Source: an uncultured Methylomirabilota bacterium (GTDB lineage Bacteria > Methylomirabilota > Methylomirabilia > Methylomirabilales > 2-02-FULL-66-22). Taken from it: DNA of 64,000 nucleotides. The notes under the pieces are model-generated. The model did no database searches. It saw nothing but the letters and a program-made list of their open reading frames with translations, and was not told the origin of the DNA. How positions within the stretch are numbered: position 1 is the first letter of the stretch; the number at the start of each line of letters is the position of its first letter. Below are positions 5,987-53,690 of this stretch, piece by piece. The DNA lies in contig OY970067.1 in NCBI GenBank assembly GCA_963705305.1, positions 3,712,001 to 3,776,000 on the forward strand. The letters are read 5' to 3'. The translations under genes were made by a program, and so were the position numbers.

Positions 5987-6859
5987 ATGGAGCCATTGAA
6001 GCTGGGCCTGCCCAAGGGAAGTCTGCAGAAGTCCACCGTCGATCTGTTCGAGAAGGCCGGATACAGGATTCTCGTGCGGGATCGCTCCTACCTTCCGGTC
6101 ATCGACGACCCGGAGATCGAATGCCTGCTGTTTCGGGCGCAGGAAATCGCCCGCTATGTAGAGCGCGGGGTGCTGGACGCCGGGCTGACCGGGCAGGACT
6201 GGATCCTGGAGAGCGCGGCCGATATCGTCGAGGTGGAAGAGCTGGTCTACAGCAAGAGCACGACGAAGGCGTATCGCTGGGTGCTGGCCGTGCCGGAGGA
6301 CTCCCCCATCCGGACGGTGCGGGATCTCCAGGGCAAGCGGATTGCCACCGAATTGGTCGAGGCGACCAAGCGGTACCTTGAGGCCAAGGGGGTCACGGCC
6401 GAGGTGGAGTACTCGTGGGGCGCCACGGAGATCAAGGCGCCGCTCTTGGTGGACGCGATCGTCGAGGGGACCGAGACCGGCGCATCGCTCCGGGCCAACC
6501 GGCTGCGGACCATCGACACCGTGGCGGAATCCACGACTAAGCTCATCGCCAGCCATGCGGCCTGGGGGGATCCCCGGAAACGGGAAAAGATCGAGGTCCT
6601 GTCCATGCTGCTGCGGGGGGCGCTGGAGGCCGAGGCCAAGGTTGGGCTGAAAATGAACGTCCCCCGGGCGAAGCTGGAGCAGGTCTCGGGCCAGCTGCCC
6701 TCCCTCCACACGCCCACCATCTCCAATCAGGTCGATCCGGACTGGGTGGCGATCGAGGTGATCATCGACAAGGAAGTGTCGCGGGACCTGATTCCGAAGC
6801 TGAAGCGGGCGGGGGCGGAGGGGATCGTCGAGTATCCCTTGAACAAGCTGATCTATTAG
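5987..6859 (+). CDS. hisG: ATP phosphoribosyltransferase, long form
   Basis: [31 protein letters not shown]-terminal regulatory domain ending EYPLNKLIY. Confidence 0.97.
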
Positions 6860-7125
6860 CAGGCTGCTGAATAAGACCCATCTGCCGGGTACCCATCTGA
6901 TGGGTGCCCAACCTTCGGCTGGGTACCCGCCCACTCGGGCACTCGTTGCGGCGTACCGGAAGTACGCCTTGACCCGCCTGCGGCGGGTGCCCCGCCCCGG
7001 GTACCCATCCCGAGGGATGGGTGACGCCGCCTTGCCGTTCGGCAGGCTCACGGCCCCGAGCGACGTTGAGGGGCATCTGGGCCTTTTTGAGCAGCCTGGG
7101 TGGAAACGGGTTTTTCAGCAGCCTG
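6860..7125. mobile_element. MITE-like repeat, family A copy 1
   Basis: Terminal IR CAGGCTGCTGAA...TTCAGCAGCCTG; near-identical core shared with 15580-15869. Confidence 0.85.
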
Positions 7126-7243
7126 ATAGAGTGTGGAATCTTGGCGTCACGGCGGTTCAACAGCCGTCTCCGTCCACGGCCGAATGCCCTCCGGCCGCGC
7201 GACAGGCGGCGGCTCGACGGGAGCCTCCTGCGCGACGCGTGCA

Positions 7244-7621
7244 ATGATGCCATACGTCCTTCTCGCCAATGCGGTCCTGATCGTCCACCTGCTGTTCGTG
7301 CTGTTCGTGGTTTTCGGTGCCTTCCTGGTGCTCCGCTGGCCCCGGCTGGCGTGGATCCATGTGCCGGCGGGGCTATGGGGGGTGGCGATCGAGTATATCG
7401 GCTTCGTCTGCCCTCTGACGCCGCTGGAGGTGGCGCTCCGGCGGCGAGGAGGAGAAGCCGGCTATGCGGGCGGCTGCATCACGCACTACGTTTCAGTACT
7501 CCTCTATCCCGCAGGCCTGACGCGCGGCTGGCAGCTGGTGCTCGGCACGCTGGCCTTGGCATTCAATGTCTTCATCTACTGGCGCCTGCTGGCAGGGCGA
7601 AATCGCCGCCCCACCGGGTAG
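7244..7621 (+). CDS. DUF2784-type membrane protein
   Basis: VHLLFVLFVVFG, WIHVPA, CPLTPLE, YP.GLTR motifs. Confidence 0.85.
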   Translation: MMPYVLLANAVLIVHLLFVLFVVFGAFLVLRWPRLAWIHVPAGLWGVAIEYIGFVCPLTPLEVALRRRGGEAGYAGGCITHYVSVLLYPAGLTRGWQLVLGTLALAFNVFIYWRLLAGRNRRPTG

Positions 7622-7960: not shown

Positions 7961-8980
7961 ATGAGACCTGTGGCCATCGTGGATCCCCATCCGAGGACGC
8001 TGGAGCTGCTCTTCGACAAGAGCGACCTGAAGCGCTTGAAGTCCCTGGTGCGGCCGATCGTCTGGGAAGGAAGCCGCATGCCGGCGCAGCAGGTCGAGAA
8101 GCATTTGCCGGAGGCGGTCGTCATCATCGGCCAGACGGACCTGCCGCGCGAGCGGTTGCAGCGCGCCGGGAAGCTCAAGGCCGTCATCAATGTCGAGGGG
8201 AATTTCCAGCCCAACATCGACTACGCCACGTGCTTCGAGCGGGGGATCCACGTCCTGGGCACCGGGACCGCGTTCGGTCCGGCGGTGGCGGAGATGGCGC
8301 TGGGAATGGCCCTGTGTCTGGCCCGCGGGATCCCCGAGGCCGATCGTCTCTTTCGTGAGGGGCATGAAGTCTACGGACGGCTCTCAAACCAGGACTCCTT
8401 TCTGATGGTCGGCGCAGAGATCGGGTTCATCGGGTTCGGCAATCTCGGCCGCGCGCTGATCAGGCTGCTGGAGCCATTTCATTGTCGGATCCGCGTGTAC
8501 GATCCGTGGCTTCCGGACCGCCGGCTGGCCGAGTTCGGCATGACCCCGTCGTCATTGGAGGATCTCCTCGGCGTCTCGCGGATTGTGTTCGTCCTGGCGG
8601 GCGCCACCTCCGAAAACCAGGCAATGCTGGATCGGCGGAGACTGGATCTCATGCCGAAAGGGGCGTGCCTCGTGCTGGTCAGCCGGGCCTCTCTGGTGGA
8701 TTTCGAGGCCCTGACGGCAAAGCTGCGCACGCGAGAGATCCGGGCGGCCGTAGACGTATTCCCCGGCGAGCCCTGGCCTACGGACCATCCGATCCGTCGC
8801 TTGGACAGCGCCCTCCTCTCGGCCCATCGGGCCGGCAGCCTTCCGGCCACCTATCGGCTGATGGGGGAGATGCTGGTGGATGACCTGGCCCAAATCCTCA
8901 ACGGGCTCCCGCCGGTGCGGCTCCAGCGGGCGGAGCGCGAAACCGTGGCCCGCATGCGCAGCCAGCCGATCGCCAGGTGA
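7961..8980 (+). CDS. D-isomer-specific 2-hydroxyacid dehydrogenase
   Basis: GFIGFGNLG, VSRA, DVFPGEP, SAHRAG. Confidence 0.9.
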   Translation: MRPVAIVDPHPRTLELLFDKSDLKRLKSLVRPIVWEGSRMPAQQVEKHLPEAVVIIGQTDLPRERLQRAGKLKAVINVEGNFQPNIDYATCFERGIHVLGTGTAFGPAVAEMALGMALCLARGIPEADRLFREGHEVYGRLSNQDSFLMVGAEIGFIGFGNLGRALIRLLEPFHCRIRVYDPWLPDRRLAEFGMTPSSLEDLLGVSRIVFVLAGATSENQAMLDRRRLDLMPKGACLVLVSRASLVDFEALTAKLRTREIRAAVDVFPGEPWPTDHPIRRLDSALLSAHRAGSLPATYRLMGEMLVDDLAQILNGLPPVRLQRAERETVARMRSQPIAR

Positions 8981-45972: not shown

Positions 45973-46110
45973 GCGGTCCACCTGCTCGTGGAAAAAGGAT
46001 CGTGGGGCCCAACGCTGCATAAGGATTCCCCAACTGTCCTGTTCTGCGGCATTCTATGGTGAAGGGTGATTCATTGTAAAGGCGGTTTCTCGCCCTGCCT
46101 GGGGTAAGGA

Positions 46111-46272
46111 ACGGTTCTAGGTGCTGCGGTGAAAAACGGTTCTGTGTGCTGCAGTTCGAGGTGCGGCGGTTTTCAAACCTCGAACCTCGAACCTTGAACT
46201 TAGAACCCTAACGCTCGAACCGCGACGCTCAAGCCTAGGACCTCGAACGTGAAACGTCGAACGTAGCGAACC
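46111..46272. repeat. Degenerate heptamer tandem repeat with inverted halves
   Basis: AACCTCG AACCTCG AACCTTG AACTTAG AACC... preceded by GGTTCTA/GTTCGAG units. Confidence 0.75.
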
Positions 46273-46336: not shown

Positions 46337-46749
46337 GCCGGAGAGGGCCGGGTGGTCGCTCTTTCCGCCGCGAGGCGGGGAGAGAGGAAAGTCCGGACTC
46401 CGCAGGGCGGGGTGGTCGGTAACGCCGACCGGGGGTGACCCTAGGGAAAGTGCCACAGAAAACATACCGCCCCGAGCAAGGCCCGCGAGGGCCGCGTCGA
46501 GGGGTAAGGGTGAAAAGGTGCGGTAAGAGCGCACCGCGGCCCCGGTGACGGGGCCGGCATGGCAAACCCCACCCGGAGCAAGGCCAAATAGGGGAGCATC
46601 CCCGCCGGCAACGGCGGGGTCGTAGGGTGGTCCCGCCCGAGACTCCCGGGTTGGCCGCTTGAGGCCGCCGGCAACGGCGGTCCCAGAGAAATGATCACCG
46701 GCTCCGGCAACGGAGCGTCACAGAATCCGGCTTATAGGCCCTCTCCGGC
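46337..46749 (+). ncRNA. rnpB: RNase P RNA, bacterial type A
   Basis: GAGGAAAGTCCGGACTC, GAAAGTGCCACAGAAAA, GGTAAGAGCGCAC, GGCAAACCCC, ACAGAATCCGGCTTAT; P1 ends GCCGGAGAGGGCC/GGCCCTCTCCGGC; T-run follows. Confidence 0.98.
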
Positions 46750-47322
46750 TTTTTTATGCCTAACTATCGGAAATCATTGTGAAAAAAATCTAGGCATGGA
46801 TTTTGAGGTCTGAAGGTCCTAGAAACCAGGATTCTGTGTCCTTCGTTTCTGCCTCTAGAAAATGTACGATCTGACTCCACGATCTTCGCTATCGTTTATC
46901 GTGGAGCCTTGAATTGTTGAATGTCCAAGATCCAAGATACCCACCAGGATCTCTCCTGATTCGTGTTCATCTGCCTTTTCAAACCGGGAAAAAGTCTCGG
47001 GGGCTATACCTTGGATACCCAATCCCCCGATAAGCGATTTCTGGAGGCATACAGCACGTCAGGAACGGAATCTTTAAGCTGCCGGTAACCCGTTTTGCTG
47101 ATCCGGGAATCCTGCAGATCCGATCAAGCCGACCACCCGTTTTTGGACTAAGCCCACCTCCTGAGCAGCCAATATTTTCCTCGACAGCTTCAGTAGGATT
47201 ATCGCAGCCGGATATAATCCTTCCTGGACAGCCATATCTCACTGTGCCGGTCCTCTTTCGTCATCTCGGTATGCGTTTTCTGCCATCCGTGTTCCCGTGG
47301 TCCGGGATAAGGGTAGTTTGCC

Positions 47323-47352
47323 TTGACAACCCGGCATGCCCTCCGATACGCT
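47323..47352 (+). promoter_or_regulatory. Putative sigma70 promoter upstream of the 567-aa gene
   Basis: TTGACA, 18-bp spacer, TACGCT. Confidence 0.45.
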
Positions 47353-47492
47353 CCTACCAACGATCTGCTCGCCCTTTCTACAACGATTCAGTGGGTCCCA
47401 TGCGGACCTATTGCCAGATATGGGCATTCGGCCACAAACCAGAAGAGCGCAGTTCGCTTCCTAAGTATCCAGGAAATGGGACCTGACTCGCA

Positions 47493-49196
47493 ATGAATCA
47501 AAATGAAATTACTAAAGAAGCCGAATGGCTACGCCACGTTGACCTGATCGACTTTATGCAATCGGATGCGCTTCATTCTCCATGGTTCCCAGCATTCAAA
47601 AGTACGAAGTCCGAGCGGGAAGAGACGCGCTGGTTTTCTGCGCTTGTTCCGGTATCCCAGGTTTCCGTCCTGGTTTCGAACTCCCACGGGTGGGATATCG
47701 GTCCATCTGATGGCTCGCCCTCTATCTGGACACATTATGGGGGGAGCAAAGTGGTGGAACGTAGATACTGTCCTTACGGGAACGAGGAAGGTATCGAGCC
47801 CATTGTGATTTATAGGTCCTTTCACGGAATGCGGCGAGAAGGGTTGGAGTTGGCTCAGGAATTCCGGCTTTTCCACAACCTCTACGAAGACTCCAAGCGG
47901 AACCAATACCTTAAGTTCGACTCTAATGGTGATGAGGCAGTCGCAGTCCGGTATGGGGACAGCCACGTCGAGATTCTCACTGATTTACTACGAGAATTCT
48001 GTGATGCAAAGCAAATGGCGCTCGCTGTATACCTCGAGAGTTTTCGCTATAGCGAGAGGACTCTTGAGGAACTTGGACTGGAAGAGCAGCGAACCGAATG
48101 GCAGGGTGACCGCTACAAGTTTAGTCTTGCGATTGTCCCCAAAGATGGGATGTTCCAGCGGGCTGACGTCGAATCGCGCGGGCTTATGATAGGTGCGAAG
48201 AAGTATATTTTGCCCGGATCGATGCCAGCCGAAAATGACAAAGAATCAGAATCCTTCCAAGAGTTCATCATAGGTGAGGATGCTAAAGGCAGACCCGTAA
48301 AGCACTCATGTGATCCCAGCGGTCTCGCGAATTATTTCGGAAAGAACCCGGAGGCGCCCCATTACCTGACACCCGTGTTCTTTAGGCCAGAAGTGCTCGG
48401 CAAGTACTACCAGGAACCTGACAAATATTCGGTGGAAGACGGGTATCTCAGATGTGGAAGCCTTTGGGGGTTGCGGCTGGACAATGACAATCCAGATCAC
48501 ATAATGGTTTTCCTCGGCGATCTCGGGACTGACCTCTCAGAGAAGGAGCGCAATTATTGGTTGAACTTCAATATCTCTCCGCAAGGGCGCGGGATGAGCA
48601 AGACAACATTTAGGCGATCCTTCATGGCAGAATTTGCTGATCCATCTCGCCCTGACCACGCATTCAAGCATGTCTACACACGATTTTGTCATGAGTACCG
48701 AAAGAAATATGGGTGGGACCTCTTTTTACCTCTTCATAGTGACGATCAGCATTTTCTCACAGCGTTGCACCTTCCAGCGAATGACAATCAGGCGGATTTC
48801 GATGGTCAGTTGATAGCCTTGACCAAGATTCTTATCGATTGTCTCAATGAAAGGGAAATTGCCAAGCATGTTCAGAACATTGCTCAGGGCGACAAGGGCA
48901 TTACGAAGCTTGAACACTTTTTGTTGGAGCGGTCGCTAGATGGATTTGAGAAACACATCAGATTTCTTCGGATCTTACAGGACTTGCGCTCAAAATCGGC
49001 TGCGCACCGCAAAGGTTCCGAATATGAGAAATTGATCTCTCAACTTGCACTCAAAGATGAAGGCCAGAAGGTTATATTTGGCAAGCTTCTGGTCGCGGGT
49101 TGCCGCTTTCTCGAATACCTTTTCACGAAGCTATGCGGGGGTTCAACCTCGCGAGACCAGAGCCAACCCCAATGCGGTACATCGGACAAGGAATGA
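47493..49196 (+). CDS. Hypothetical protein with C-terminal HEPN-like R-x5-H motif
   Basis: 567-aa intact ORF; helical C-terminus with LQDLRSKSAAHRK. Confidence 0.7.
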   Translation: MNQNEITKEAEWLRHVDLIDFMQSDALHSPWFPAFKSTKSEREETRWFSALVPVSQVSVLVSNSHGWDIGPSDGSPSIWTHYGGSKVVERRYCPYGNEEGIEPIVIYRSFHGMRREGLELAQEFRLFHNLYEDSKRNQYLKFDSNGDEAVAVRYGDSHVEILTDLLREFCDAKQMALAVYLESFRYSERTLEELGLEEQRTEWQGDRYKFSLAIVPKDGMFQRADVESRGLMIGAKKYILPGSMPAENDKESESFQEFIIGEDAKGRPVKHSCDPSGLANYFGKNPEAPHYLTPVFFRPEVLGKYYQEPDKYSVEDGYLRCGSLWGLRLDNDNPDHIMVFLGDLGTDLSEKERNYWLNFNISPQGRGMSKTTFRRSFMAEFADPSRPDHAFKHVYTRFCHEYRKKYGWDLFLPLHSDDQHFLTALHLPANDNQADFDGQLIALTKILIDCLNEREIAKHVQNIAQGDKGITKLEHFLLERSLDGFEKHIRFLRILQDLRSKSAAHRKGSEYEKLISQLALKDEGQKVIFGKLLVAGCRFLEYLFTKLCGGSTSRDQSQPQCGTSDKE

Positions 49197-49202
49197 CCAA
49201 AT

Positions 49203-49300
49203 AGCGAACAACGGCGGGAACCAGTAGCTCATTCAGCGGGGTGTTTGCTCTTTGCGGGCCTGTCTCGCTCTCCCTGCTCGGAAGGTTCCCGCCCGCACTA
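49203..49300 (+). other. Degenerate attC-like site
   Basis: AGCGAAC 6 bp after the stop, then GGCGGGAACC (49213-49222) pairing with GGTTCCCGCC (49284-49293); distal GTT core lost. Confidence 0.45.
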
Positions 49301-49669
49301 GTGATATTCCTTCCATCTATTGCCTACATTCGCCTTTTTTGGAAACCTGGGTAATATTCGAATCCCACCCCTCATTTTATCTGCCAACATCTTCCCTATG
49401 TGACGAGATCCGCAACAATAAGGTATTGTATTTCCTCATGTTATCGAAACGGAAACGATTGTGGTTGACAGCCAATAAGTTAAGCGATACTTTTCCTTTT
49501 ACAACCCGCTGATTTCTCTTCTGTCATCCCGGGGGTGTTATGCAGACACTATATAACATCCCGATCATTGTTTTCCTTGTGTCTAGGTCCTTGCCTTATC
49601 GCTGCCTTTCCAATCACCATGACAGGGAGCACGGTTGTCTCTTCAATAATGCCTTAACGGACGAGTAAC

Positions 49670-50448
49670 ATGGAAGATGGGTATGCTGGTGACGTGGGAG
49701 ACTTCAGTAAGTTTGCATTGCTAAAGTCGTTATTTGGCTGCGCAAATCGTACAATCGGTGTTACTTCGTTCCTCTTTCCGAACGAATCTCAACGAAACGA
49801 TGGAAGGTATGTCGATAACGTCGATCAGCAACGCTTTTTTTGGCTGATGAAGGTCTTTGTAAGCGATTGAAGAAAATCTTGGCTGGTAAAAGATGTGTCG
49901 CCTCCCTCGAAAAAGCAGGATTGCTTCCGGACAGCACCGTTTATTTCTCTGAACCGCCTTACTTTCATATAAGTTATCCCAGCCAAAGCTATAAAGACAA
50001 AACAGAGAGGGAATTCCAGAGAAAACAGTGGCTGAAGAAGGCGACTAATACTGTCTTGGAATGCAGGGTGTTGTCTCTTGATCCTGACAATGGTTTGCAA
50101 GTAAAATCGTGTCCAAGGATAAGTCAAAAAAAGTCCGGCAAATTTGCCTATTATTCTGAGATTTCGGAACTATGGAGAGACAAATCTGTCTGCGTCATTT
50201 ATCACCATGTCAATCGTCATGGAACACATTCAGAAGAAATTAGAGCAAGGGTTCAGGAATTGAAAACGCAAATCAAACCTTCAGGTAGGATATTTGCATT
50301 GCGCTTCTGGCCGTATAGTCCACGAACGTATTTTATCCTTACAGCGTCAGAGGAAGAAGCGAGCTGTATCATAGATCGAATTGATCATTTCTTACAGAGT
50401 GCATGCGGTAAGTTCTGGGATTGTTATCAGGAGGATGAGAACGCATAA
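49670..50448 (+). pseudogene. Hypothetical methyltransferase-fold protein, frameshifted at T7 (49835-49841)
   Basis: N-part YAGDVGDFSKFALL and C-part LDPDNG...VIYHH in different frames; one extra T would fuse them. Confidence 0.65.
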
Positions 50449-50542
50449 GAGATGGCTTTGTCATCAGTATCCTTTCACCAATGCTCTAAAGTGATTGTTA
50501 TGGTCGAATGTAAAGCGAGTGCATAGACGGAATAGGGTAAAC

Positions 50543-50571
50543 TTGACAAATGCCCAGGAAGCGAATATACA
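50543..50571 (+). promoter_or_regulatory. sigma70 promoter
   Basis: TTGACA, 17-bp spacer, [15 protein letters not shown] before 50617. Confidence 0.7.
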
Positions 50572-50616
50572 TGAAACACACATAAACCTTTTCCGTCCAC
50601 CCATTAAGGAGGATCT

Positions 50617-50897
50617 ATGGCTCTCCAATTAAAGGCAGTTCTCGGTAAGGCACTGCGGGAACTAGAAAAGGAACGAGTAAAGGTAGATCGACAAATTGCA
50701 GCAGTTCAGGCAGTCTTGGGAGCATCAGATAGCGAGAAATCCTCACCCGTAAAAGCCAGATCCCGTAAAACGCGAATGATGAGTGCGGCAGCAAGATGGC
50801 GCATAAGCCTGCCTCTGAAATCAGTCTACGATGTTGTGGCGGCGCCCACCTAGCCATGAAAAAACGGTGGGCAGATCGGAAGAAGGCTGATGGTTAA
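50617..50897 (+). pseudogene. Small basic coiled-coil protein interrupted by a 41-bp insertion
   Basis: Removing 50811-50851 gives ...MSAAARWRISLAMKKRWADRKKADG-stop. Confidence 0.65.
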
Positions 50898-51402
50898 CCA
50901 GGAAGAGAGAGGCTAAGGCTAGACCGGAAAAGGAGTGTAATTAAATGGTTACACAATCTATGCAAGGAAGTGAGTTACGGATTGCGCCATTCTTTCGTCG
51001 TTGAGGAAAGGTGAAGAGCGTATTGGCAGGGGTTATATCGACACGGCCGATCTGCATGAACTAAAGGAGAAGATCGAGACAGGTGGCCGGTTTCTTCCTA
51101 CTCGAGTCTTGATCAGATCGATATCGGTGTCTAGGGGACCACTGCAAGAGCATGTCAGAAAAGCACCCACGCCAATTATGATCAAAATTGGGAGGGCAGT
51201 CTTACAGATGAGGAGGTTATACGGTACCTGCCCGCATTTAAGAGTGCCATTCAAGTTCCGGTTTACGTTCTCGGGATCGAGCTATAGCTTCCAGCCACTG
51301 ACATGGATGGATTCAAGTCTGAGTTCGACCCATCGTATGACCGTGCGCTGATACGCAGGTTGAGCCTCTGCTCCTTTCCACGTCTTCGGGGTTGTCGCGC
51401 AG

Positions 51403-53097
51403 ATGACTGCCATTGACAGCTGGAAAAAAGTTGCGATTTTATTTCTAATTGCCGGGTGGTTAGTCTACGGGAACTCTCTGGTCAATGGATTCGTCGGCGA
51501 TGATGAAGATCAGATTGTCAAGAATCTCCCCTTGCATGATATCAGAAACGCAGCCAGGTTTTTCCAGGGCAGTATGTTCTATTCCGGGGGGGCTCGCACT
51601 GTAACAGGCAATTACTATCGTCCATTGGTATCAGTCCTGTGGTCAGCAATGTATAGCACCTTCGGTAGCGGCCCATTTTGTTTTCGCTTCGTTCAAATCA
51701 GTCTGCATATCACGAATAGTATATTCGTCTTCATCGTCCTAAGATATTTCCTCAGCCCATTGACCAGCATCTTCCTCTCCCTCGTATTTTTGCTTCACCC
51801 CATCAATACGGAATCAGTGATCTACATTTCAGGCTTTGGGGACGTACTCTTTTTCTTCTGGGGAATATTGGCTTTAGCTTGCGCACTTAAGAGAAATGCT
51901 TCACTGGCGACCAACTGGCTGATGGCAGCTTTTCTCTTGATGTCCCTCTTATCCAAAGAAACGGGAATCGCCTTTGTAGTGTTACTCAGCGCGGACGTTC
52001 TCCTTAGGCGGCGAGGACGCAAGCTTTTGCTCTATCCCTGCGCCGCGGTGATTAGTTACTTCATGCTCCGATTTGGACTCGGCCATATCTATCTGAATGA
52101 AGCGGCAGTGTCGCCAATCATGAAAGCGGGCATTACCGATCGACTCCTGACCATGCCCAAGGTATTTGCTACCTATCTGACGACTTTTCTGTTTCCACGT
52201 AACCTGGCGTTTGCGCAAGAATGGCTGGTGAGGTCAGCAAGCCTTCATGATTTCTGGACACCCTTAGCCGCCGGTGGGTTATTTTGTATCGCGGTAGGGT
52301 TCCTAGGAAACAGATTGCTAGGAACGAGCCAAATGCTCCGGACATTGGTTTTCTTCTTGGTGTGGTTTGGGCTGGGAATCGGGCTGCATTTGCAACTCGT
52401 TCCAGCAGATATGACCTATGCCGATCGATACTTTTATTTTCCCATGGTAGGACTGTTGGGACTGTTTGGTCTCGGAATGGAGCAACTTCCAGTCTCCAAG
52501 GAGAAAGTCCCCCTAAAGAGTATATTAGGCTCGGTACTGTTGATACTCTTGGCGGGGCGAACGGTAGCGAGAACCTTTGACTTTCGGAGCGGGTACACCC
52601 TCTATACTCACGACAGTAGAATAAACACTGACAGTTTCGCGCTGGAAAATGACTTGGGGGCGGAACTGACCAGAAGGGGAAATTACGCTGCGGCAGAAGG
52701 GCACTTGAAGAAATCAATCAGCCTCTTCCCATACTTTCTCAATTGGAACAACTTGGGTGTCGTGTATGCGAAAACGGGACAGCCCGAGAAGGCATTAGCT
52801 GCCTTTTCTGAATCCCTAAAGAATGCGCAGTTTTATGTGGCGTACGAAAATATCGCAGGATTATTCGTCTGGGTGAAAGAGTCCGATCGGGCGATTAGTT
52901 TCTGCCAAGATGCTCTCAAGAGATTTCCCGAGGACCCTAAGCTCTGGCTGTATCTGGCACTGGCTGAGTACGAAAATGGAGACAAGAAAGAAGCAATATG
53001 GGCAGCTCGGAACGCTTATGCAATTGACCGGTCCCCGGAGAGTGCCTATGTGGTTGACAGAATTGTGAGGAATATGGACATTGTTCTAAGACCCTAA
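51403..53097 (+). CDS. GT-C-type membrane glycosyltransferase-like protein with C-terminal TPRs (TMTC-like)
   Basis: FVGDD, YYRPL, LHP...ESV, SKE, ADRYFY motifs; many TM helices; NNLG TPR. Confidence 0.8.
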   Translation: MTAIDSWKKVAILFLIAGWLVYGNSLVNGFVGDDEDQIVKNLPLHDIRNAARFFQGSMFYSGGARTVTGNYYRPLVSVLWSAMYSTFGSGPFCFRFVQISLHITNSIFVFIVLRYFLSPLTSIFLSLVFLLHPINTESVIYISGFGDVLFFFWGILALACALKRNASLATNWLMAAFLLMSLLSKETGIAFVVLLSADVLLRRRGRKLLLYPCAAVISYFMLRFGLGHIYLNEAAVSPIMKAGITDRLLTMPKVFATYLTTFLFPRNLAFAQEWLVRSASLHDFWTPLAAGGLFCIAVGFLGNRLLGTSQMLRTLVFFLVWFGLGIGLHLQLVPADMTYADRYFYFPMVGLLGLFGLGMEQLPVSKEKVPLKSILGSVLLILLAGRTVARTFDFRSGYTLYTHDSRINTDSFALENDLGAELTRRGNYAAAEGHLKKSISLFPYFLNWNNLGVVYAKTGQPEKALAAFSESLKNAQFYVAYENIAGLFVWVKESDRAISFCQDALKRFPEDPKLWLYLALAEYENGDKKEAIWAARNAYAIDRSPESAYVVDRIVRNMDIVLRP

Positions 53098-53238
53098 ATC
53101 GTCCGGACGCATCTATTCTCTTGATCTACCACCGCAACCGGAGTCTCGTGCCTTTCCAGGTTTCGCCTCACCCCTCCACACCTTGACTGACCCCGGCCAC
53201 CGTATTGAAACCCACAGCTCCCAGTGCCCAGGGTCGAC

Positions 53239-53439
53239 CTACCCGCTACACAAAGGTGTTGAAGATTCGCTTGTCAATAGGCGCGATTCCTCTGTGGTTA
53301 CAGCGCATTCCGTCCTTTTCGGATTGAGCTGACATCGAGGAAGATTTCTTCCCCGACAAGGCGTTCCGATTCGGTCAACCAATTCATGCCGTTACTAGCG
53401 AAACGCCGACCGTTATCAACACCTTTGTGTAACGGCTAG
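53239..53439. mobile_element. 201-bp MITE with IS4/IS50-like ends, family C
   Basis: 24-bp TIR CTA(C/G)CCG(C/T)TACACAAAGGTGTTGA; 9-bp direct repeat AGGGTCGAC at 53230-53238 and 53440-53448. Confidence 0.9.
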
Positions 53440-53499
53440 AGGGTCGACCTCGATGGGGACCCGTGCAGGCCTCGAACTGGGCACCTCATTGGAGCACCA

Positions 53500-53690
53500 C
53501 CCAGAGTTATTCTCCATACCCGGATTGCTTCCAGATTTTCCGGAGGGTATGTCCAATCTCGTCCTGAATAATGCCGCATGATTTCATTTAGGCCGTGAAT
53601 CCTACTCGGGAGTTCTGTTAATTCCCGGATATGGCCGTATCCGATGACGCTTTGCAACGAGAAAGTGCATCGGCAGGGATTGCTGTCATC
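53500..53690 (-). pseudogene. C-terminal remnant of a pyridoxamine-5'-phosphate oxidase-like (NimA) gene
   Basis: DSNPCRCTFSLQSVIGYG...IMRHYSGRDW...IRVWRI aligns with the product of 58351-58824. Confidence 0.85.

Follow-up and report, generated by a model that had tools for sequence, protein, structure and literature searches.

Genes and motifs beside rnpB

We analysed a 64,000-nucleotide (nt) stretch of the genome of an uncultured Methylomirabilota bacterium (hereafter the window; contig C1 of genome G000, positions 3712001-3776000), and within it the interval 47452-50503, where an earlier note had seen integron-cassette-like boundaries around two genes. Genomes and genomic stretches used for comparison carry G and L numbers, respectively. 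Two of these stretches recur below: L230, a metagenomic contig with the closest retrievable homolog of the first gene, and L094, in which an intact attC site, the recombination site of integron cassettes, follows a homolog of the second. The locus is laid out as follows, in window coordinates.

46340-46750, plus strand: rnpB, bacterial RNase P RNA of class A (RF00010, full model 1-367, 293.4 bits), adjoining the island on its left side
46751-53600, no strand: low-GC island of about 6.9 kb holding the putative cassette relics (GC 0.41-0.55, against about 0.65 in the flanks and the genome)
47452-47458, plus strand: GTTCGCT, candidate 5′ border of cassette A, with the former crossover presumably between G and TT; the 7-mer is common to L230
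47493-49196, plus strand: gene 1, an intact open reading frame (ORF) of 567 amino acids from a large family without annotation
49203-49249, plus strand: putative attC relic of cassette A, with R″ core AGCGAAC (49203-49209, identical in L230) and candidate R′ core GTTTGCT (49243-49249)
49213-49222 and 49285-49294, plus strand: perfect 10-bp inverted repeat, arms 62 nt apart
49250-49536, no strand: spacer of 287 nt separating cassettes A and B, possibly a further gene-less relic
49537-49543, plus strand: GTTATGC, candidate 5′ border of cassette B; it matches in full the R′ core of the intact L094 attC and is exactly complementary to the GCATAAC core in L094 and L093
49670-50448, plus strand: gene 2, a frameshifted copy of a family of about 258 amino acids with an RlmJ-like fold, in pieces 49670-49870 and 49840-50448
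50443-50503, plus strand: putative attC relic of cassette B, GCATAAG...GTTATGG, 61 nt, aligning to the L094 attC

Direct reading of the sequence places the 7-mers and the 10-bp inverted repeat where they had been described. AGCGAAC starts 6 nt past the stop codon of gene 1, GCATAAG (50443-50449) overlaps the TAA stop of gene 2 (50446-50448), and GTTATGG lies at 50497-50503. The single ‘next gene’ that had been drawn after GTTATGC does exist, 127 nt separating the motif from its ATG, but it is split between two overlapping frames, which switch at a run of seven T residues (49835-49841), while the homologs of about 258 amino acids are uninterrupted. A terminator-like hairpin with a T-run marks the end of rnpB (46736-46760). 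The promoter that had been proposed about 100 bp before the first GTT did not hold up: a perfect TTGACA at 47323-47328 is accompanied by a weak second hexamer only, and a consensus promoter scan is negative for 47200-47452, giving 4 sites in the whole of 46700-50700 where 5.0 are expected.

An attC site is an imperfect hairpin, typically 57-141 nt long, and the integron integrase recombines its folded strand between the G and the TT of the 3′ core. Once inserted, a cassette therefore has TTNNNN at its start, and the site at its end has the complementary sequence, NNNNAAC, as 5′ core. In the window, cassette A follows this border rule exactly (GTTCGCT/AGCGAAC) and cassette B at six of seven positions (GTTATGC/GCATAAG). 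The site of gene 1 does not extend over 49203-49543: its 3′ core is likely GTTTGCT at 49243-49249, giving a site of 47 nt, or else that core was lost after the 10-bp stem. On the latter alternative the site would have been an attC of about 104 nt, with the 10-bp repeat as its L″/L′ stem and the R′ core gone. The layout of core, 3-nt spacer and stem resembles a native attC site of this genome (L009 10811-10873), and no GTT follows the stem.

Relatives of the two genes in integron arrays

No attC family of Rfam matched here, and attC sites were scored with two covariance models. R1 was built from 14 different class 1 attC sites lying behind annotated cassette genes in nine plasmid integron regions, its structure being the R″/R′ and L″/L′ pairs on an alignment of the 14; R2 was rebuilt from 36 matches, including native sites of this genome. 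When checked, R1 recovers an attC outside its training set (estX, 20.5 bits), finds 2 sites on a cyanobacterial plasmid, and finds 9 on one strand beside the genome’s own broken integron integrase gene, intI (15.8-44.6 bits).

Gene 1 was surveyed at 80 genomic loci, with homologs of 35-57% identity. Single-protein scans of genome and metagenome contigs for related loci were empty; repeats of these scans based on alignments worked. The metagenome contigs, when searched with the eight closest gene 1 proteins in alignment, gave a single locus, L230, whose homolog is 79% identical in amino acids and 80% in nucleotides. Here GTTCGCT, identical to that of the window, stands 36 nt before the homolog’s ATG, AGCGAAC follows 7 nt past its stop, and GTTATGG 52 nt further. 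Nucleotide similarity joins 47475-49215 of the window to 3982-5723 of L230; by eye it begins at GTTCGCT, with none further left. The homolog is the first unit of an array, with three ORFs behind it, each followed by an attC match (6471-6517, 22.2 bits; 7509-7576, 35.9 bits; 8242-8306, 30.2 bits). The border rule is followed by all four cassettes: TTCGCT/AGCGAAC, TTATGG/CCATAAC, TTAGCT/AGGTAAC (with one mismatch) and TTAGGC/GCCTAAC. Upstream lie ordinary metabolic genes, and within the 9.7 kb examined of this 28.9-kb record no integrase was found. Judged from its sequence, L230 is thus an attC array that starts with the gene 1 homolog as cassette and has no integrase in view. A weaker case is L041, in which a fragment of the IntI N-terminus lies just upstream of a 39% identical homolog and two weak attC matches lie downstream.

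Between gene 1 and its L230 copy, nonsynonymous divergence (dN) is 0.116 and synonymous divergence (dS) 0.938 (dN/dS 0.12); gene 1 has been under purifying selection since the two split. Within the phylum it occurs in 5 of 251 genomes, the other copies being 37-46% identical, and this rarity supports a horizontal arrival.

The 80 loci surveyed for gene 2 include some with attC sites beside the homolog. In L094, a 59-nt attC with perfectly complementary cores (GCATAAC...GTTATGC, 22.8 bits, fold z-scores −3.6 and −2.9) starts 5 nt past the homolog’s stop, and at the same place L093 keeps GCATAAC and L091 keeps GCATATC. The window’s GCATAAG...CTAAAGTGATTGTTATGG can be aligned to the attC of L094 at 38 identical positions, and none of 2000 shuffles reaches the score; with the cores removed, the interior of the relic is matched or exceeded by 86 of 2000. 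GTTATGC at 49537 is, moreover, the exact core predicted for this cassette from the gene 2 homologs, represented by L094. Two attC matches precede the homolog in L097, 929-999 (38.5 bits) and 1324-1453 (35.2 bits), and 18 nt separate their end from its ATG. L099 has group II intron domains (RF02001, 112 bits; RF01998, 60 bits; 6985-7416, minus strand) about 200 nt past the homolog’s stop, and the intron looks like those that target attC sites. The sequence immediately after the stop in both L099 and L097 resembles the intron junction that interrupts the attC of the IMP-1 cassette in a control plasmid (L224), the L097 case being a likeness only, as the contig ends there. Homologs of both genes are therefore found in integron arrays, as the earlier note had suggested checking: L230 for gene 1, and L094 and L097, with L099 in addition, for gene 2.

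For gene 2, dN/dS is about 0.25-0.3, close to the 0.23 of an intact pair, which points to a recent break or to an assembly error in the homopolymer. In the only public run found, a DNA run (X1, 15% of words), coverage is limited to 48046-48315, 48777-48927 and 49190-49352, and neither the T7 run nor either GTT border falls within these segments.

The integron integrase model TIGR02249 has no match inside the window, in keeping with the earlier note’s picture of a decayed array without a local integrase. A tblastn search with two IntI proteins likewise found nothing in the window, and no integrase of any kind was found in the island. The genome does possess an intI, the sole match over the cut-off (317.8 bits, at 853-854 kb), though a frameshift and an in-frame TGA disrupt it and it lies 2.9 Mb away, in an integron at G000:C1:843444-854377 (L009 5445-16378). 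The nine native attC sites beside it (L009 5445-13955, about 843.4-852.0 kb on C1) are GC-rich, of the GCCTAAC...GTTAGGC type, and fold at −16 to −37 kcal/mol. They lie on the intI strand, downstream of its 3′ end, so that the usual divergent layout is not followed. A motif-and-fold heuristic, applied to 19 relatives on the assumption that cassettes lie upstream of intI, gave mostly false matches in GC-rich coding sequence and was discarded; only L208 among the 19 stretches gave two matches, and since R1 places the array of this genome on the other side of intI, these upstream stretches say little. Across the phylum, integron integrases over the cut-off occur in 83 of 251 genomes, and in 11 of 20 within the genus, the tally including the unpublished genomes G075, G216 and G217. 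Outside the window, R1 also matches an attC at G000:C1:2519051-2519114 (plus strand, 42.1 bits), far from intI, which may be an isolated cassette or another array without integrase. The whole-genome R1 search scored 150 of 1419 candidates and so cannot show the absence of further arrays.

On this evidence it is very probable that 47452-50503 comprises two former integron cassettes, lying side by side and in the same direction in a foreign low-GC island beside rnpB. The borders are common to homologs in real arrays, the window’s own sites fail to fold or to score, and the window contains no intI; the comparison with L230, L094 and L097 bears out the earlier proposal of integrated cassettes with degenerate sites. 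Each cassette would once have been mobile, as one promoterless ORF with an attC site. Cassette A (TTCGCT...AGCGAAC) would run from 47453 to the relic at 49203-49249, its gene still intact and under purifying selection, and cassette B (TTATGC...GCATAAG...GTTATGG) would span 49538-50497, its gene now frameshifted. With their pairing lost, the sites no longer fold or are recognised. Given also that no integrase lies near, the cassettes would be frozen in place as a decayed, sub-threshold CALIN-like array (CALIN, attC sites that stand clustered and lack an integron integrase). An integrase would have put the cassettes at this locus, and the commonness of integrase-bearing members of the lineage counts in support. 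The relics are low in GC and unlike the native sites, which points to a foreign source. As to the route, insertion at a secondary site, an array fragment from a lower-GC donor and an rnpB-targeting element may each account for the arrival, and the evidence does not decide among them.

Counter-evidence and other explanations

Several observations weigh against an integron history and must be set beside the homologs. Run over the whole window with filters off, R1 and R2 report nothing significant in the island (46751-53600), and the best window matches (12.2 bits with R1, 11 bits with R2) lie elsewhere. Restricted to 47300-50700, R2 gives at best 6.5 bits (E = 1), at 49203-49249 (AGCGAAC...GTTTGCT), a match that starts precisely at the AGCGAAC core picked out in the earlier note; the site at 50443-50503 goes unreported. 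The proposed sites also fold no better than shuffled sequences (z −1.13 to +1.25): −1.13 and 0.00 for 49197-49310, and +0.77 and +0.80 for 50436-50510. For the cassette B relic itself (50443-50503), the folding energies are −3.7 and −2.8 kcal/mol (z −0.09 and +0.32), indicating that its pairing has been lost. Even the gene 1 homolog’s own attC in L230 fails the model, so that this border rests on motif conservation and the context of the array. Motif details are imperfect as well, the core of cassette B ending in AAG rather than AAC, and GTTCGCT agreeing at only two of four variable positions with the GTTRRRY consensus. The frameshift of gene 2, sitting in a homopolymer, could be an assembly error. 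Most members of both families, finally, live outside integrons. No attC was seen at 78 of the 80 gene 1 loci, integron context being confined to two (L041, weakly, and L230, which came from the separate search); for gene 2 such a context is limited to about 4 of its 80 loci. The earlier note had named two outcomes that would speak against it, namely the lack of any attC model score, which is what both models gave, and homologs never lying in cassette arrays, which is contradicted by the arrays described above.

Nor do the cassette marks extend further. The other three ORFs of the island and the 287-nt spacer show none, and the spacer has no homolog, model match or family match. The ORFs at 46979-47242, 49252-49512, 50617-50853, 51001-51351 and 51403-53097 have no homologs in any compared locus or elsewhere in the genome, and no family matches except for tetratricopeptide (TPR) repeats in the last of these. 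CCATAAC, the core expected of a third cassette beginning with TTATGG at 50498, has no exact plus-strand match in 50504-53600, and its matches in the whole window number 83, against 83.9 expected. A repeat search revealed no attC-like repeated family in the island or beside intI.

The strongest competing account accepts real cassettes, and holds that they arrived within a larger element at the rnpB 3′ end, or as a block by homologous or illegitimate recombination, the array being already old and devoid of an integrase. We consider this a genuine possibility, though the balance tips against it. The whole 6.9-kb island is uniformly low in GC, and the native attC sites are GC-rich and of another type than the relics. 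In two relatives, furthermore, the last 36 nt of rnpB are repeated downstream, the mark of rnpB-integrating elements: at 3497-3532 of L237 (G004:C119), 2.6 kb away and 94% identical, and in L238 (G017:C47), 2.1 kb away and 86% identical. This suggests that small elements integrated into the rnpB 3′ end in this genus. In the window, by contrast, no such repeat is present within about 11 kb downstream (to 58000; the best match is 15 nt), and the island carries no integrase of any kind. The element in G004 contains an ORF of 412 amino acids, which has no Pfam match. Four relatives of the same genus have neither a low-GC island nor an attC match downstream of rnpB, and no empty site was found among the relatives, since the genus does not conserve synteny around rnpB.

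A purely coincidental origin of the motifs, with both genes as ordinary island cargo lacking any integron history, is far less plausible, and we consider it highly improbable. It does draw on the motif statistics. Of the ORFs of at least 150 amino acids, 24 of 12,741 in the genome (0.19%) have GTTNNNN no more than 60 nt upstream and its exact reverse complement no more than 60 nt downstream; in the window 1 of 145 does, namely gene 1. Pairs with one mismatch occur at 373 of 12,741 (2.9%) and 6 of 145, respectively, and widening the upstream range to 150 nt gives 48 exact and 993 one-mismatch pairs among the 12,741, an overall 3-8% for the latter. About 0.3-0.5 exact pairs are thus expected per window, and the inexact kind of pair seen at cassette B is common. 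The motifs alone are not beyond chance for 64 kb, and the failure of models, folding and most homolog loci to show attC sites agrees with coincidence. It is the homolog comparison that gives the motifs significance: coincidence does not account for the same 7-mers in the same places around a 79% identical homolog at the head of an array that keeps the border rule throughout, nor for a relic that aligns to an intact attC beyond all shuffles and a GTTATGC that matches the core predicted from L094. The chance explanation is thereby largely refuted by L230, L094 and L097.

That genes 1 and 2, adjacent and on the same strand, might form a single two-gene operon with the motifs as regulatory elements is already refuted by their lack of co-occurrence and can be given next to no weight, as a gap of 470 nt separates them, none of the 80 gene 1 loci has a gene 2 homolog within 6 kb, and neighbour clustering of the 80 gene 2 loci, which included no direct search for gene 1, shows no neighbour common to more than 10.

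Further features of the surroundings may be recorded. The ORF at 51403-53097 (plus strand), within the island, encodes a protein of 564 amino acids with C-terminal TPR repeats; the L230 array also carries a TPR-repeat cassette (322 amino acids), the two having no detectable similarity. At the right end of the island, a small element at 53200-53515 has 24-nt terminal inverted repeats (arms 53239-53262 and 53416-53439, 92% complementary), and AGGGTCGACC stands on either side of it. It looks like a miniature transposable element, as the genome contains at least 10 more scattered copies with 80-93% similarity. Just 5′ of rnpB, 46099-46262 contains short tandem and dispersed repeats (units such as TCGAACC, at 14-nt spacing), with similar stretches at many places in this genome and its relatives.

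Gene products and comparison with known elements

The gene 1 family has more than 2000 members across bacteria and archaea, with 50-79% identity across phyla, yet the protein has no Pfam, NCBIfam or PADLOC match, and profile searches of both families against Pfam and the sequences of the PDB returned nothing. An AlphaFold model, made from an alignment of 34 sequences, has a mean pLDDT of 81.2 and comprises two parts. The β-rich residues 3-243 best match the C-terminal end of Avs3 (8dgc_A 1848-2076; Z 9.8, root-mean-square deviation 4.1, 166 aligned residues; Foldseek E 0.02), and no NTPase family match was found in gene 1, such as the NTPase core of Avs3 and other STAND proteins would give. 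Residues 385-555 form a helical bundle that matches HEPN structures (5yep_B, 1wwp_B, 2hsb_A, 1jog_A and 3o10_A) at Z 5.1-6.5, values that are common for helical bundles. HEPN domains carry an Rx4-6H motif in a four-helix bundle, and in gene 1 R499 and H505 (R-x5-H) are invariant in all 34 aligned sequences. A protein atlas links gene 1 to RnlA/HEPN_RnaseLS clusters at 0.80, which serves as a lead only.

Genomic context adds to this picture. In about 10 of the 80 loci, the homolog is placed inside a type I restriction operon, between hsdS and hsdR, and PADLOC families are matched by 28 of 129 immediate neighbours, at 22 of the loci. These neighbours include type I restriction-modification, IetA, AbiJ, GajB, PycC and several candidate systems. 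In L015 and L017, from Verrucomicrobiota, IetA-like ATPase genes (PADLOC, E 2e-72) and two conserved partners come after the gene 1 homologs, inside type I restriction operons. The likeliest role for gene 1, put forward as an inference, is that of a defence protein acting on its own, whose N-terminal domain would be sensor-like and whose C-terminal domain would be of the HEPN type and resemble a nuclease; the description ‘defence cassettes’ is a fair guess as far as gene 1 is concerned. A bolder proposal, tentative and on present evidence rather unlikely, is that the family would be a new single-protein antiviral system, in which a domain like the Avs3 end is joined to a C-terminal HEPN-type RNase, and which spreads both as a cassette and as an hsdS-hsdR passenger; the window copy would then have been domesticated, remaining functional after its cassette decayed.

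For gene 2, the model of a homolog (P0121, pLDDT 91.5) finds RlmJ chains at the top ranks (4blv_A: E 3.1e-5, probability 1.00, TM 0.49). RlmJ-like (DUF519) methyltransferases have a catalytic motif of the DPPY type, and at that place the gene 2 family conserves DPDNG; it has no Pfam match. Among distant members (L139, L111, L112, L158 and L160-L166), the gene follows an adenylosuccinate-synthetase-like (PurA-like) gene in 10 of the 80 loci and a dCTP-deaminase-like gene in 6, and it stands next to a MazG/PRA-PH-like pyrophosphatase in 4. Such neighbours may constitute a nucleotide- or DNA-modifying gene set.

Cassette-borne defence genes have a precedent in the preprint ‘Mobile Integrons Encode Phage Defense Systems’ (10.1101/2024.07.02.601719). 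Gene 1 is likewise cassette-borne, and its family often stands beside known defence genes; it differs in matching no PADLOC model, and its defence role is putative. Travelling in cassettes and in type I restriction operons, and with PADLOC-listed genes adjacent at 22 of 80 loci, the family is a good candidate for a new defence gene.

The genome’s own integron (G000:C1, about 843.4-854.4 kb) is an element of the same class, evidence of an integrase in this lineage that could handle cassettes; the relics of the window differ in being low in GC, of other sequence types and unfoldable. A further comparison is with CALINs (Cury et al. 2016, PMC4889954), whose definition asks for at least 2 attC sites detected by a covariance model and for no integron integrase. 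Like a CALIN, the locus has tandem cassettes in the same direction and no intI nearby, with an intI elsewhere in the genome. In departure from the definition, neither site scores meaningfully, so that R1 and R2 do not supply the two covariance-model attC sites and a standard detector would miss the locus, and one cassette gene is broken. The locus fits the CALIN idea at a later stage than the definition captures.

Small CALINs, and isolated cassettes (SALINs), may arise by cassette insertion at attG sites that share a GWT core, as proposed by Loot et al. (preprint 10.1101/2022.09.11.507474). The present cassettes are like these in lying outside any integron, beside a housekeeping gene. They differ in that the insertion event is not reconstructable here, because no empty site was found in relatives, and two adjacent cassettes at an attG would require two events, or one event followed by an attC × attC capture.

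The locus thus belongs to a known kind of element, and its value lies in a documented fossil and in the pointer it gives to a large, unannotated family that travels in cassettes. It is a worked example of a proposed end stage, in which cassettes left the integron, lost their attC sites and became ordinary chromosomal genes. Detectors based on attC models are blind to such loci, and the history of this one could be recovered only through close homologs in live arrays, a hint that integrons have contributed more to genomic islands than current counts allow.

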